Positions 15,924-26,026 of a stretch of 28,948 nt of DNA are shown here, piece after piece. Source of the stretch: an uncultured Candidatus Poseidoniales archaeon (lineage in GTDB: Archaea; Thermoplasmatota; Poseidoniia; Poseidoniales; Thalassarchaeaceae); the NCBI GenBank assembly GCA_964000875.1, contig CAXFCF010000001.1, forward strand, positions 1-28,948, read 5' to 3'. Within the stretch, counting starts at the first letter, position 1, and the number at the start of each line of letters is the position of its first letter. The notes beneath the pieces were generated by a model. It ran no database searches. It was not told where the DNA came from and saw only the letters and a program-made list of their open reading frames with translations. Both the position numbers and the translations under genes were made by a program.

Positions 15924-16373
15924 CTATTCACTGTTCATCTCAAAGTCTTGGTCGCGAGTGAGAATCACTCCAATCAGAATACCCAGTGGTGCAACCATCA
16001 TGCAAAGCAGTAGGGTAGGCATCGACATCCATATTGGCCGGTCATGCTCCACCATCCTCTTCCAAATCCAGCGTCCACCAAGGGTGTCTAGAGCTAGCAT
16101 GTGGAGCCAAGCTAACATGATAGCAGTCTCGTCATCAAAGAACTCTACTACTAATTCGGGAGTAGGCATCTGAGATCCGAAGATTAGGAAGACATCAACG
16201 ATTTCTGGGATTACCAGTATTGTGTAAGGTACGGTCAGGGGTACGATGCAGTACCACGGATTACTCAACACCTTCTGGGTAACCTCATGTTTTGGAACGA
16301 ACCACATCATTATCCAGATGGGTACAATCATAATACTCGAGATCCAGAACATCGCAACTTCCAGTGACACCAT
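15924..16373 (-). CDS. ABA4-like/DUF4281 membrane protein
   Basis: About four TM helices with AWLHMLALDTLGGRWIW and PTLLLCMMVAPLG, matching the ABA4-family W-H-LA-D...GRWI and P-L-L-M-GP-G pattern. Confidence 0.8.
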   Translation of the reverse strand: MVSLEVAMFWISSIMIVPIWIMMWFVPKHEVTQKVLSNPWYCIVPLTVPYTILVIPEIVDVFLIFGSQMPTPELVVEFFDDETAIMLAWLHMLALDTLGGRWIWKRMVEHDRPIWMSMPTLLLCMMVAPLGILIGVILTRDQDFEMNSE

Positions 16374-16474
16374 TTTCTTCCCTTCCTTTCTACGATCTTC
16401 TAGTCAACTGTATTGAGATTCTCCTTCGATGGTTGAACGAATGCCGTATTGAGTTCCAACTGAGTTCACCCGTT

Positions 16475-17038
16475 TCAACTAATGTATGTTTTCAGGCTGA
16501 CGGAGGCGGGCACCTTAGGGGGCTCACTGAAACCAAAACATGCTGTATTCTCAAATGGCTTACTTTCACCGAGGTCAACCTGCCCCAATCGTGCCTCCAC
16601 CTGTGACACCCGTGAGAGTGATCTAACGGAATACCACGCTTTACGTTGATTCTTCGTTCGACCATGTGTCTTGGTTCCAAACAACAACCTGCCAAAGAAT
16701 GCCTCTACCGTGGCTACAAACCAAAGCGGTCTCCAGAAGGGAATTGGCAAAGTGAATCCCCATGACATGCTGACATGCAGGTCACCCGCCTTAACCGAGA
16801 TTGATTTCTCTCTTCGTTCAACTTCCAAATCAACTATTCTAACTTCTTCGAAGTTGTAGAGATTGGAGACGAGTTCGGCATGCTCTTTCGATGGGGAAAA
16901 CAGGAGCCTAGTACCATCGGACTTTGCAACCATTACATTCGTGAAGCTGCCCAATTTCGATTCTTGCCAATCTCCTATGACGATTCTATCGCCACTTGAG
17001 AAACCAGATGAGGTGATTCGCCCTCTAAAGATGTCCAT
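16475..17038 (-). CDS. Conserved hypothetical protein, beta-rich
   Basis: Clean 187-aa ORF directly downstream of crtI with GAGGT SD. FRGRITSSGFSSGDRIVIGDW...TYNF-type pattern recalls actinobacterial hypotheticals (from memory, unverified). Confidence 0.65.
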   Translation of the reverse strand: MDIFRGRITSSGFSSGDRIVIGDWQESKLGSFTNVMVAKSDGTRLLFSPSKEHAELVSNLYNFEEVRIVDLEVERREKSISVKAGDLHVSMSWGFTLPIPFWRPLWFVATVEAFFGRLLFGTKTHGRTKNQRKAWYSVRSLSRVSQVEARLGQVDLGESKPFENTACFGFSEPPKVPASVSLKTYIS

Positions 17039-17098
17039 GTGGTGACCTCAATCTATCGATTTGAATTCAGCAATCACCTTCTGTAGAACCTGTTTGGA

Positions 17099-18721
17099 TC
17101 ATGAAGGAGTGCCTTGTGCTGATTCATTCAGTCGAGCTCTGTTGATTCGATACTTCTTGCGTATCGATCTAGGTAGTCGCATCGTCGGGAACCATGTTTC
17201 CACACCGTTCCAGTCTGGAACAATGCCAAGATCAGCGCAGATTAGTTTACTGGATATTCTTCCACTCTCGTAGATGGTTGGAAGGCCACTTCCCGGATGC
17301 GTCCCACCACCGACGATGTACACATTCTCAAATTCCTCAAAGCGATTGTTAGGGCGCATCCAAAGCATCTGTGGTATCGTGTGTGCCAAGTTAAAGACAG
17401 CACCTCGGTAGATGCTTCTCTCCCCCCAATCCTTTGGAGTTACGATTGTCTCCGATACGATGTGTTCTGCTATGTTATCGAAGCCTAATTTCTCCATCTG
17501 TTCGACGATAACATCTCTGTATTCCTGCTTTACTTCATCCCAATTGATGTCATGCTTGGTGTTGGGTACAGGCACTAGGACATAGAGGGTTGAGTGCCCT
17601 TCGGGAGCCATTCCTGGATCGGTGACACAAGCGTTCTGAACATATATCGAAGGGTCATCCCAAGGCACATCACCGTCGACGATTGCATCTAGATTGGATT
17701 CATAGTCCTCTGCAGCATATATCTGGTGATGGGGTTGGTCGTCATACAACTTGTCGACACCTAGGTAGAGCATGAAAGTTGAACATGAATAGCCCTTCTG
17801 ATCGAGCTTTTTGTTGCTCCACTTCTTTCGCTTACTATCAGGCACGAGTCCCTTCATTGCGGTAGCGAAATCTGCATTGACCACGACTTTGTCAGCGAGA
17901 AATGTTCCCTTTGATGTTCTGACTCCCTTGATGACGCGACTCTTTTCGTTCTCGAAAACCATCTCTTCCACTTTCTCACCAAGGCGGATCTCAACTCCCA
18001 TCTCCCTTGCGATATTTGCCATCCTCTCCGAGATTTCTCCTAAGCCACCTTCTGCGTGGTAAACCCCGTGAGCGTACTCCAGATACGACAGTATGGTGAA
18101 CAGAGAGGGTGCATGGAACGGGCTCATTCCCAGATACTTAGTTTGGAAACTCATAGCGAGCCTCACTCTGGGATCAGGGAAGTCTCTCTGAAGATCCGAT
18201 GCGACCGTCCTCCAGGGTTTCAATACCGTGGCTACACCCATTGCTCTGCGGCTGAACACATCGGTGATTGAGTTCCAAGGTGATTGAAGAGAATCTCTTG
18301 CGCGATTGAGTTTCTTCCTGTTCTGCAAGATGTATTTCTTGAATCCCTCAGCGTTCTCGTCGTCAGATAATTCACGGATCCTCTCAGTCATAGCTTCAAG
18401 GTCGCAAGTAGCATCAATCGAGCCACCTGCACCGAACACCAAACGGTAGTTAGGATCTACAGGAATAAGCTTCAGATCTTTGTGAGCATCCCTACCGATG
18501 GCTTGGAAGATTTCCTCTATGACTTCCGGGAAATGGAAGAAGGTTGGCCCATTGTCGAACTTGTATCCATCTTTTTCCCAGATGTGTGTCCTTCCTCCAA
18601 CCATTTCCTCCTTCTCGATGATGGTTACATCGATTCCAGATTGGGCAAGTAGTAGTGAGGACGCCAGTCCTCCAGGTCCAGCTCCAACGATGATTACCTT
18701 GTGTTTCGCGTCCGCAGGCAT
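17099..18721 (-). CDS. crtI: Phytoene desaturase, CrtI family
   Basis: FAD-binding VIIVGAGPGGL...EK...GGR, FDNGPT, YAHGVYHAEGG, SCSTFMLYLG and C-terminal VYIVGGGTHPGSGLPTIYESG signature. Confidence 0.9.
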   Translation of the reverse strand: MPADAKHKVIIVGAGPGGLASSLLLAQSGIDVTIIEKEEMVGGRTHIWEKDGYKFDNGPTFFHFPEVIEEIFQAIGRDAHKDLKLIPVDPNYRLVFGAGGSIDATCDLEAMTERIRELSDDENAEGFKKYILQNRKKLNRARDSLQSPWNSITDVFSRRAMGVATVLKPWRTVASDLQRDFPDPRVRLAMSFQTKYLGMSPFHAPSLFTILSYLEYAHGVYHAEGGLGEISERMANIAREMGVEIRLGEKVEEMVFENEKSRVIKGVRTSKGTFLADKVVVNADFATAMKGLVPDSKRKKWSNKKLDQKGYSCSTFMLYLGVDKLYDDQPHHQIYAAEDYESNLDAIVDGDVPWDDPSIYVQNACVTDPGMAPEGHSTLYVLVPVPNTKHDINWDEVKQEYRDVIVEQMEKLGFDNIAEHIVSETIVTPKDWGERSIYRGAVFNLAHTIPQMLWMRPNNRFEEFENVYIVGGGTHPGSGLPTIYESGRISSKLICADLGIVPDWNGVETWFPTMRLPRSIRKKYRINRARLNESAQGTPS

Positions 18722-24969: not shown

Positions 24970-24976
24970 ATGGCGA

Positions 24977-25987
24977 TTAGGCTGCCAAAGACCAGAGCCC
25001 TAGAGCAGCCAAGGCGAACCTAATTTTTCGCATGAATCCAAGACTTACCCTAGATGACAATACATCTCCCCTTCGGCGTTCAACTTCCTTGAGAATTTCA
25101 CCATAAACAAGGCACATCATTTCTGGAGATTTTCGCGCTCGGCGATCCAACAATGGTAGTAGTTTCATTCCTTGTTCTGAATGTGTTCTCGTCCTGTGCA
25201 GATAGTGACGCATGAACTCTTGCCAACGCATCGTGTCTGCAAGCCCAGGGTCGTTCAGTTCACTCACACATATGCCAAACCTTTCCAACTCCTGTCGAGG
25301 GAGGTATACTCGTCCCCTCTCCAAGTCCTCTTCGATGTCTCTTAGAACATTCACCATTTGCAGGAAGATACCCATTTCCTCAGCATGCTCCCTTGCGTTT
25401 GGATCGGTGTAACCATAGATTTCGATGAGAGCTAACCCAACAGTGGATGCGACCTTGTAGCAGTATGAACGCATGTCTTCGAAGGTTTGGTACTCGGTAG
25501 GGAAGAGGTCGTCTGCCATACCTTCCAATAATGTCCTGAGATCGCTGATACGTATGGGGTACCTCTGCAATGTATCTTGAAGTGCGATGAAGATTGGATG
25601 GGAAACACTCCGACCTGCTTCGATGTCATCCAAGTTATCGTGGAACCATAGCAACGCCCGCACGCGTGAGTGGAACTCGGTAGTTGGATAGGACGATTCT
25701 GATTGTCTATCGACACTCATCTGGAGAGCCTTGTCCTCGGCTCTTGTGCTGAGGTGTGAGAGATCGACATCGGGTTGCCAATCTCCGTCGACGATATCGT
25801 CGGCACGTCGGCAAAACGCATAGAGTGCGTAGACCGAACGTTTCCTTGTTGCGTCCAGATATCGGAAGGAACGCATGAACGATGTCGAAGCAGCACGTGT
25901 GATCTCCTCACACTGCTGGTAAGCGTCTTCAATGGTGATTTTGGGCTCATAGTTTCGGTGTTGCGAAACAAGAGACGCCGAAGCCAT
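24977..25987 (-). CDS. crtB: Phytoene/squalene synthase family protein (CrtB-like)
   Basis: YAFCRRADDIVD, YCYKVASTVG and LQMVNVLRDIEED...GRVYLP. Start moved to ATG 25987 because a TATA box ends 23 nt upstream; ATG 26005 lies only 5 nt from the TATA. Confidence 0.88.
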   Translation of the reverse strand: MASASLVSQHRNYEPKITIEDAYQQCEEITRAASTSFMRSFRYLDATRKRSVYALYAFCRRADDIVDGDWQPDVDLSHLSTRAEDKALQMSVDRQSESSYPTTEFHSRVRALLWFHDNLDDIEAGRSVSHPIFIALQDTLQRYPIRISDLRTLLEGMADDLFPTEYQTFEDMRSYCYKVASTVGLALIEIYGYTDPNAREHAEEMGIFLQMVNVLRDIEEDLERGRVYLPRQELERFGICVSELNDPGLADTMRWQEFMRHYLHRTRTHSEQGMKLLPLLDRRARKSPEMMCLVYGEILKEVERRRGDVLSSRVSLGFMRKIRFALAALGLWSLAA

Positions 25988-26009
25988 GGCCTCAACAGTT
26001 TCCATCTGG

Positions 26010-26026
26010 ATATAAATGACTGTTTT
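26010..26026 (-). promoter_or_regulatory. Putative BRE/TATA promoter of crtB (AAAACAGTCATTTATAT)
   Basis: A-run, then CA, then TTATAT at the same register as the crtI/phr promoters (11/17 identical). Confidence 0.6.

Follow-up and report, generated by a model that had tools for sequence, protein, structure and literature searches.

An order-wide, light-associated gene island with a TrmB-type regulator in the archaeal order Poseidoniales

A gene island for carotenoid synthesis, DNA photorepair and accessory functions recurs throughout Poseidoniales, the archaeal order of the surface ocean also called Marine Group II. We describe it from a window of 28,948 nucleotides (nt), i.e., the whole stretch of DNA analyzed, which is contig CAXFCF010000001.1, positions 1 to 28,948 of the forward strand, of assembly GCA_964000875.1 from an uncultured member of the family Thalassarchaeaceae. 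The island is real, order-wide and light-associated, and it carries an unstudied regulator. With a probability of roughly 0.55, we read it as a Poseidoniales "photic-zone island" whose genes are kept, gained and lost together and which provides sunlight protection as well as carotenoid for rhodopsin-bearing cells.

Gene content of the island

At 84% completeness, the assembly amounts to 1.56 Mb spread over 375 contigs. Genes were listed from Pfam and NCBIfam profile scans of the open reading frames (ORFs) of the window. The initial annotation had grouped nine contiguous genes into one carotenoid and photoprotection block, and the scans recovered all nine where it had placed them, between positions 15924 and 26005; the gene order differs from that in its title and one gene, encoding 187 amino acids (aa), is an outsider, so that eight of the nine belong together. 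The features are listed below.

15842..15913, plus strand: tRNA-Gly(CCC), 10 nt from the left edge of the island, a boundary marker
15924..16373, minus strand: ABA4-like (DUF4281) small membrane protein (PF14108, E 4.6e-24), last in the crtI transcription unit
16475..17038, minus strand: conserved hypothetical protein of 187 aa, no Pfam or NCBIfam match
17099..18721, minus strand: CrtI-family phytoene desaturase, a flavin adenine dinucleotide (FAD) enzyme (TIGR02734, 484.8 bits, cut-off 238.1)
18745..18761, minus strand: promoter box AAAACACCACATTATAA, 23 nt upstream of the crtI ATG
18771..20000, minus strand: predicted ABC1/UbiB-family atypical kinase (PF03109, E 1.3e-45)
20002..21396, minus strand: TrmB-type regulator of 464 aa (PF01978; C-terminal MsvR match; TrmB/TrmBL2 fold)
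21393..21863, minus strand: Bcp/PrxQ-type peroxiredoxin (Prx; PF00578, E 1.5e-32), first gene of the Prx-regulator-ABC1 unit
21864..22035, no strand: divergent intergenic region between the Prx and photolyase genes, whose counterpart in relatives holds NUDIX and ribA (GTP cyclohydrolase II)
21996..22012, plus strand: promoter box AAAACACCGCATTATAA, 23 nt upstream of the photolyase ATG at 22036
22036..23586, plus strand: probable class II cyclobutane pyrimidine dimer (CPD) photolyase (TIGR00591; class II matches in PDB), ORF open from TTG 22027
23596..24969, plus strand: fusion of SRPBCC, TIGR01777 (a YfcH/SDR39U1/ThyD-type short-chain dehydrogenase/reductase, SDR; 313.6 bits, cut-off 207) and DUF1731, hereafter SRPBCC-SDR
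24977..25987, minus strand: CrtB/CrtM-type head-to-head prenyl synthase (SQS_PSY; PF00494, E 8e-68), ORF open to 26005
26010..26025, minus strand: promoter box AAACAGTCATTTATAT, 22 nt upstream of the synthase ATG at 25987

All genes from the ABA4-like gene through Prx lie on the minus strand, the photolyase and SRPBCC-SDR genes run divergently on the plus strand, and the synthase gene is again on the minus strand. Start and stop codons overlap or abut at both the Prx/regulator and the regulator/ABC1 junctions. Given the promoter-box spacing, ATG 22036 and ATG 25987 are the likely starts of the photolyase and the synthase, and the latter agrees with ortholog lengths of 335-336 aa.

The 187-aa gene has homologs in 132 clusters (42-99% identity) and is absent from 35 of 35 related island loci; in another Poseidoniaceae genome, its homolog lies beside CARDB, dCMP-deaminase, Mur-ligase and M50 genes. 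We considered it as a missing carotenoid enzyme and ruled this out, as it is conserved elsewhere in a housekeeping context. It is probably a passenger, judging from these neighborhoods, that is, a resident gene caught inside the arrangement of this window.

Conservation of the island across Poseidoniales

Synteny was followed in tblastn maps of 35 related loci. The recurring arrangement runs outward from a divergent center: in one direction (NUDIX), photolyase and SRPBCC-SDR, and in the other (ribA), Prx, regulator, ABC1, CrtI, (Trx-like CxxC lipoprotein, ABA4-like protein) and CrtB. This order was seen in loci of the Thalassarchaeaceae type (L019, L023-L026, L036, L037) and of the Poseidoniaceae (L001, L003-L015, L029-L031, L038), and a small third family has a shorter form of the island (L021, L022). 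The genes for CrtI, ABC1, the ABA4-like protein, the SRPBCC fusion and photolyase fall inside about 10-15 kb in all three families, and by a hand count from coordinates CrtI and the SRPBCC fusion lie no more than 15 kb apart in 60 of the 73 genomes having both on one contig; in two complete genomes (G003, G027), the island is in two parts, 70 and 200 kb apart. The island of the window is without ribA and NUDIX, which appear from the comparison to have been lost from this version, and it has crtB at its far end. Lineage-specific extras include a second amine oxidase, which is weakly HpnE-like, an MMPL transporter, an SDR, a Rieske ferredoxin and a fasciclin/halocyanin protein. The NUDIX protein of the relatives was tried as an IDI-type isomerase and rejected, with generic Nudix matches only. 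This clustering is far beyond chance and recurs in all three families of the order; the accessory genes are syntenic with crtBI in each of them, as the neighborhood survey proposed in the initial annotation was meant to find out.

Presence and absence of the genes were then tabulated in one sample of 151 Poseidoniales genomes; related genomes are not independent samples, and the counts describe a pattern rather than a statistical test. An ortholog of CrtI was found in 112 genomes, the SRPBCC fusion in 111, ABC1 in 103 (single copy), the ABA4-like protein in 102, photolyase in 96 and rhodopsin in 90. By genus, the tallies of CrtI, the SRPBCC fusion, the ABA4-like protein, ABC1 and photolyase are near-identical, and neither these genes nor rhodopsin were found in genera g2, g3 and g20 or in the remainder of g1. 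No ABC1 was found in any island-less genome (E ≤ 1e-40). The idea of a carotenoid module would have been undermined had the accessory genes failed to co-occur with crtBI, and this matching presence and absence by genus speaks to the contrary. Across the order, the island is inherited or lost as a unit, and its distribution follows that of rhodopsin and photolyase, two markers of a life exposed to light.

A rare promoter box common to three transcription units

CrtI, the photolyase operon and crtB each lie 22-23 nt downstream of a rare AAAC-N6-TTATAW box. The CrtI and photolyase boxes share a near-identical 17-mer, AAAACACC[A/G]CATTATAA, ending 23 nt before the ATG, and the synthase box, AAACAGTCATTTATAT, lies 22 nt before the second ATG of its ORF. 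This box-to-ATG spacing implies that the transcripts would be leaderless. In the 1.56-Mb assembly, a loose form of the pattern has 9 sites, 3 of which are at island promoters; of the 19 near-matches in related loci totaling 603 kb, 18 precede CrtI, the NUDIX/photolyase operon or ribA, and the ABC1 and crtB genes of many relatives carry a looser AAAC-N6-TNATAW form. Five near-complete genomes hold 19 exact sites (1-5 each), about half of them at island promoters or at a stand-alone ABA4-like gene, with others at an MMPL transporter next to ABC1 and at an ABC permease.

No words are more depleted in the whole assembly than TATA-like hexamers: 674 copies of TTATAA would be expected and 18 are seen, and TTTAAA and TTTATA have 20 and 26 copies. 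This suggests strong selection against spurious archaeal promoters. Taken with its position at three units, the common box suggests their common, strong and probably co-ordinated expression. Loose TGTT...AACA arrangements around the boxes were noticed by eye as a possible palindromic operator and set aside as insufficient for a claim. The coordinated unit put forward in the initial annotation holds in an evolutionary sense, in synteny and co-occurrence, and three transcription units have the rare box in common; that the island is regulated by light is what we infer.

The island encodes a TrmB-type regulator with an additional C-terminal domain

From its N terminus onward, the regulator has a TrmB winged helix, then a coiled coil and a PLD-like domain, and it ends in a V4R/H-NOX/Bet3-like sensor domain. 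PF01978 matches at 32.7 bits over a cut-off of 25.6, which places the protein in the TrmB family, and 19 aligned orthologs have a mean identity of 67% per column. When the structure model (predicted local distance difference test, pLDDT, 74) was searched with Foldseek, it matched TrmBL2 (5bpd, E 5e-14) and TrmB (3qph, 2f5t), with PLD-fold matches in the middle domain; the model indicates that this is a true TrmB-fold protein. The C-terminal 130 residues, modeled alone (pLDDT 82), weakly matched the V4R domain of PoxR/MopR, H-NOX and Bet3 (E 1e-3 to 1e-2, TM score about 0.5). Pfam gave no V4R match for this domain, and membership of that family was rejected, the likeness being at the level of fold only. 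Such an architecture, as modeled, would be in keeping with the sensing of redox state or of a hydrophobic ligand.

An NCBIfam model of MsvR matched residues 335-446 of the regulator (E 9.6e-9, 35.3 bits against a cut-off of 220). MsvR of methanogens is a redox-sensitive repressor made of a winged helix and a V4R domain (PMC3729527), and it senses redox state via the V4R cysteines. The two proteins share an archaeal winged helix with a V4R-type C-terminal domain and a linkage to oxidative-stress genes, whereas the island regulator has a TrmB-type N terminus, an extra PLD-like domain and no conserved cysteine in its V4R-like domain. Among 14-19 orthologs, no conserved cysteine was found in the C-terminal domain, and the sole invariant cysteine, C158 in the motif GILHLCRS, is in the middle domain; hence, neither the equivalog score nor the redox cysteines of MsvR are found in this protein. 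With TrmB and TrmBL2 of Thermococcales, it shares by fold the winged helix, coiled coil and PLD-like effector domain, but it has an extra C-terminal sensor domain, and no sugar-metabolism genes surround it.

MerR-family, B12-dependent LitR/CarH proteins govern light-inducible carotenoid and photolyase regulons in Myxococcus, Thermus, Streptomyces and Pseudomonas putida. Like these regulons, the island groups crtB, crtI and photolyase with a cofactor-supply gene and an embedded regulator, following a logic of sunlight protection. It differs in its TrmB fold with a V4R/H-NOX-like domain, its archaeal promoters of B recognition element (BRE)/TATA type with predicted leaderless starts, and its accessory set of ABC1, SRPBCC-SDR, ABA4-like protein and Prx. 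The proposal that the module is run by a TrmB rather than a B12-dependent MerR protein stands as regards the type of protein, with a TrmB fold present and no MerR or B12-binding domain among the 23 largest ORFs of the window by Pfam, so that a regulon of LitR/CarH type is not found here; its role as controller is taken up below as a candidate one. The island-type regulator (at least 54% identity) was found in Poseidoniales genomes only; apart from one weak match, Marine Group III and other Thermoplasmatota yielded no similar protein. A paralog that equals the regulator in length and is 31-37% identical to it occurs in Poseidoniales whether or not they have the island (G037, G041, G002, G005 and many others).

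The synthase and CrtI probably form a C40 carotenoid

CrtI is matched by TIGR02734 over residues 9-499 and by NAD_binding_8 (E 5e-13), as expected of the family; it scores below the CrtID and CrtD equivalog cut-offs and reaches 46 bits with HpnE. The synthase is matched by PF00494 at 229 bits and has the two DxxxD motifs, DDIVD and DIEED. HpnD is the NCBIfam model that it matches best (229.9 bits, cut-off 278.6), and the CrtB equivalogs give 106-164 bits against cut-offs of 480-550; the nearest PDB entries are CrtM (8is6) and a phytoene synthase (5iys). A product of C30 or non-carotenoid type (presqualene/squalene-type lipids or a diapocarotenoid) serving membrane adaptation would agree with the rank of HpnD ahead of the CrtB equivalogs, with CrtM as the nearest solved structure, with the HpnE-like second amine oxidase in islands of relatives and with a separate cluster of two synthases and an amine oxidase in a Marine Group II genome. 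We hold this to be very improbable: the partner of the synthase scores 485 bits on the CrtI family model against the 46 on HpnE, the equivalog cut-offs of HpnD and HpnC are not reached either, and co-occurrence with rhodopsin and photolyase fits a pigment. Geranylgeranyl pyrophosphate (GGPP), moreover, is an abundant prenyl donor in archaea, which also counts against a C30 product. On these family matches, a C40 product of the synthase is likely.

The photolyase is matched by TIGR00591 over residues 19-508 with 362 bits, below the cut-off of 550, and its best PDB matches (8oet, 2xry, 3umv; E 1e-55 to 1e-62) are all of class II and aligned over residues 265-509 only. Orthologs of Prx, 55-88% identical, occupy the same position in related loci. 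The active-site stretch of Prx, FFYAKDGSPTCKRGC, is atypical, with CxxxC spacing and Ala for the usual Pro, and the protein reads PAKSSFVI where Bcp enzymes carry Arg. In four loci (L001, L030, L031, L038), a second Prx, 29-37% identical, lies beside SRPBCC-SDR; the copy in L001 matches PrxQ/Bcp models.

Three accessory proteins are co-inherited with the pigment genes

In the ABC1 protein (PF03109, 155.9 bits), the A-rich loop reads AAASIGQVH, the catalytic loop HGDLHPGN and the KxGQ motif KLTQ. Since the protein scores 166 bits on the UbiB equivalog with a cut-off of 487, it is by this measure not a UbiB ortholog. The ABA4-like protein is a DUF4281 member (PF14108, 85.7 bits against 27, positions 2-125 of 127) and directly follows CrtI in most Poseidoniaceae; this family match does not imply a plant-type, neoxanthin-related function.

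SRPBCC-SDR has a GSSGLIG NAD-binding motif at residue 163 and matches PF08338 (58 bits) and PF03364 (32.4 bits against 23.4), as well as TIGR01777. Because PDB 3oh8 from Corynebacterium, aligned over residues 11-453, shares its architecture, the fusion is neither an archaeal invention nor specific to archaea. The SDR half is a clear TIGR01777 member at 313.6 bits, like ThyD, SDR39U1 and YfcH, and we know of no biochemical activity for any of these proteins. In Anabaena, the TIGR01777 relative ThyD is induced by high light and required for high-light acclimation (PMC11711299); unlike the island protein, ThyD is thylakoid-bound and without an SRPBCC domain. The comparison to a plastid prenyl-lipid toolkit, made in the initial annotation, amounts to a resemblance of family names only.

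Rhodopsin accompanies the island, and the known last steps to retinal are missing in most genomes

Nearly every rhodopsin-positive genome has CrtI (89 of 90; the exception is G080), so that rhodopsin is almost a subset of the island. The known enzymes downstream of CrtI are rare: Blh was found in 16 and true CrtY in 15 of the 151 genomes, with every case in one family, and the sample yielded no heterodimeric cyclase; as a result, the known last two steps to retinal are missing in 76 of the 90 rhodopsin genomes. None of Blh, true CrtY and the heterodimeric cyclase was found in the genome of the window (84% complete) or in 74 other Poseidoniaceae, and the canonical retinal pathway (crtY plus blh/brp) is therefore not found here. 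The rare genes belong to a bacterial-type cluster of a CrtI paralog (33% identity), true CrtY and Blh that is present in about 10% of sampled Poseidoniales, in family f3 only (G146:C11:2489-7489, G090:C12:65740-66698 and 13 further f3 genomes). In haloarchaea, crtB, crtI, crtY and brp/blh occur with bacterio-opsin and the regulator Bat. Poseidoniales resemble them in an archaeal CrtB and CrtI pathway co-occurring with rhodopsin and differ in that most lack CrtY and Brp/Blh, in the type of regulator, and in a block that includes photolyase, Prx, ABC1 and SRPBCC-SDR.

Co-occurrence with rhodopsin fits the supply of a carotenoid precursor for the rhodopsin chromophore at least as well as the light and oxygen-radical defense first proposed. 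One may go further and suppose that the carotenoid arm mainly feeds rhodopsin, with a retinal precursor or an antenna carotenoid, that at least one of several co-inherited proteins (ABA4-like, SRPBCC-SDR, the Trx-like lipoprotein and the second amine oxidase of relatives) replaces the cyclase and the cleavage enzyme, and that photolyase and Prx are mere neighbors by lifestyle. The near-inclusion of rhodopsin in the island and the restriction of Blh and CrtY to one family favor this view, as do a report of Marine Group II as having rhodopsin and lacking blh (PMC7734400) and the rhodopsin gene of G027 (locus L043, G027:C1:1429500-1430900), which has the same promoter box 22 nt before its ATG. 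The ABA4-like gene also adjoins Blh in two bacterial-type clusters, G146:C11 and G090:C12; this association can be turned the other way, since it argues for working with Blh and not replacing it. In addition, 23 CrtI-positive genomes, that of the window among them, have no detectable rhodopsin, including some that are 90-97% complete and genera g10 and g14 entirely; the island encodes nothing that looks like a cyclase or a carotenoid oxygenase; and retinal could be scavenged from the environment. We regard a mainly rhodopsin-feeding role as unlikely. The genomes that carry the island without rhodopsin suggest that the carotenoid has some purpose besides feeding rhodopsin.

A more specific proposal can be made: a non-canonical route to the rhodopsin chromophore or an antenna carotenoid would run via the ABA4-like protein, SRPBCC-SDR and/or ABC1 acting on the CrtB/CrtI product, and the TrmB protein with its V4R/H-NOX-like domain would sense a light-derived signal (the pigment, a redox change or a hydrophobic photoproduct) and switch the island, perhaps also rhodopsin, through the common box. 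This is speculative, and we hold it to be rather improbable.

Weighing common control

A number of observations weigh against the photic-zone reading. No public RNA run containing this DNA was found, and four metatranscriptomes searched at 80% likeness gave short patches from relatives only, in conserved parts. The patches fall on CrtI, ABC1, the regulator, Prx, photolyase, SRPBCC-SDR and the synthase, with near-exact pieces at 22256-22406 and 17977-18131, and they are evidence neither of transcription nor of transcript starts. For a Marine Group II genome, a published dark incubation reports depletion of a "crtD" that is another amine oxidase, gene 41; the island CrtI of that genome is gene 661, and its island genes 715-718 were not among the significant genes (PMC9723583). 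The Prx-regulator-ABC1 unit of the window has no recognizable box, and the box also stands before genes outside the island, namely, the G027 rhodopsin, a fasciclin/halocyanin surface protein (23 nt; L039/L045), a TFB paralog (about 140 nt; L040/L044) and an MMPL transporter (28 nt; L042). It may be the mark of a small regulon or simply that of the strongest core promoters. Kinship among genomes means that the agreement in presence and absence overstates the support, and the roles that we assign to ABC1, SRPBCC-SDR and the ABA4-like protein are guesses.

We had considered the dark-incubation data as support for light control of the island and rejected them, because the depleted "crtD" adjoins two SQS_PSY genes and not the island CrtI (PMC9723583). 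In that genome, SIMO Bin 19-2, genes 39-41 make up a cluster of their own, HpnC/D/E-like, in which two SQS_PSY genes stand with an amine oxidase gene (PMC9723583 supplement). The gene cofH, for the F0 synthase that makes the antenna cofactor of photolyase, was also depleted in the dark (PMC9723583 supplement).

Some of these points would be met by a conserved neighborhood without common control, held together by shared ancestry and low rearrangement, with the box as a generic strong BRE/TATA element and the TrmB-type protein regulating itself only or something else. With TATA-like hexamers depleted genome-wide (18 against 674 for TTATAA), any strong promoter would stand out. The additional box sites at rhodopsin, fasciclin/halocyanin and TFB genes point the same way, and similar genes are highly transcribed in Thalassarchaeaceae, i.e., those for proteorhodopsin, halocyanin, TFIIB and a "phytoene desaturase", whichever paralog is meant (PMC9723583). 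The regulator paralog in island-less genomes and the division of the island in G003 and G027 also agree with it. Yet the order is old enough for extensive rearrangement, and the block persists in three families with differing flanks; its genes are lost together, not singly; and genomes without the island lack the island-type regulator. A neighborhood without common control is, in our judgment, rather improbable, and we return to the photic-zone reading in the discussion.

The island is variable within one genus

Mis-binning of the contig was ruled out, as its GC content matches the rest of the assembly and its flanks are 67-81% identical to, and syntenic with, those of congeners G041 and G079; on these grounds, the contig belongs to the genus of the assembly. 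In congeners with 70-81% identical syntenic flanks, every island gene is missing, and the other 5 genomes of the genus are without CrtI, the SRPBCC fusion, the ABA4-like protein, ABC1, photolyase and rhodopsin. The closest island genes are in another genus, in G015 (Prx 88%, regulator 77% and ABA4-like protein 75% identity), and the nearest CrtI, at 82% identity, is that of metagenome-assembled genome SP210. The island is therefore a variable unit even inside one genus, whether by gain here or by loss in the congeners.

At the left edge, the tRNA-Gly gene raised the question of integration at a tRNA. This was rejected, with no direct repeat of the tRNA 3' end at the right edge and no att-like repeat; the syntenic region of congener G041 has no tRNA there, and no integrase was found among the annotated ORFs of the window (Pfam/NCBIfam). 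Of the usual marks of an integrative island (border tRNA, flanking repeats and integrase), the border tRNA alone is present.

The flank on the left is of housekeeping type, with Hjc, an M50 protease, an Lhr helicase and a giant CARDB protein. The last (5530-10773, minus strand) has 1747 aa, a single recognizable CARDB domain and 68-74% identity in congeners, and its gene adjoins the homolog of the 187-aa gene in another Poseidoniaceae genome. On the other flank, an enoyl-CoA hydratase/PaaA-like operon (26121-28806, plus strand) encodes enoyl-CoA hydratase, a PaaA/BoxB-like di-iron protein and a gene without assignment; congener G041 has it too, at 70-81% identity, but there some 20-28 kb separate it from the other flank.

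Discussion

In the mechanism that we propose, the CrtB-type synthase and CrtI would convert GGPP to an acyclic carotenoid, most likely a lycopene-like one to judge from family membership. The class II photolyase would repair ultraviolet (UV) dimers, and the Bcp-type peroxiredoxin would remove peroxides. ABC1, SRPBCC-SDR and the ABA4-like protein may be accessories that act on or with hydrophobic isoprenoids, as suggested by their strict co-inheritance and the roles of their relatives. The TrmB-type regulator, with a sensor domain of the hydrophobic-ligand type and predicted co-transcription with Prx and ABC1, is the obvious candidate controller of the unit. CrtI, the photolyase-SRPBCC operon and crtB would be expressed co-ordinately as leaderless transcripts starting at their ATG codons 22-23 nt after the box. 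As a whole, the unit would protect the cell against light, UV and reactive oxygen and supply carotenoid to rhodopsin-bearing cells.

A full-text search of the literature found no description of this island in Marine Group II. For a marine Heimdallarchaeon, the literature mentions an operon in which crtB and crtI are joined by two unknown genes. Poseidoniales, none of which has yet been brought into culture, rank among the most abundant archaea of sunlit ocean waters. The island touches two open questions of the field, namely, how Poseidoniales sense and survive light and where the retinal of their rhodopsins comes from. It offers defined parts with which to approach them: its own regulator of unstudied architecture, three promoters with a common box, an ABC1 kinase found only with the island and two uncharacterized lipid-type proteins. 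It is also the first natural context that ties prokaryotic ABA4-like, TIGR01777 and ABC1 proteins to one pathway, and it provides a simple genomic marker that separates photic from deep ecotypes.

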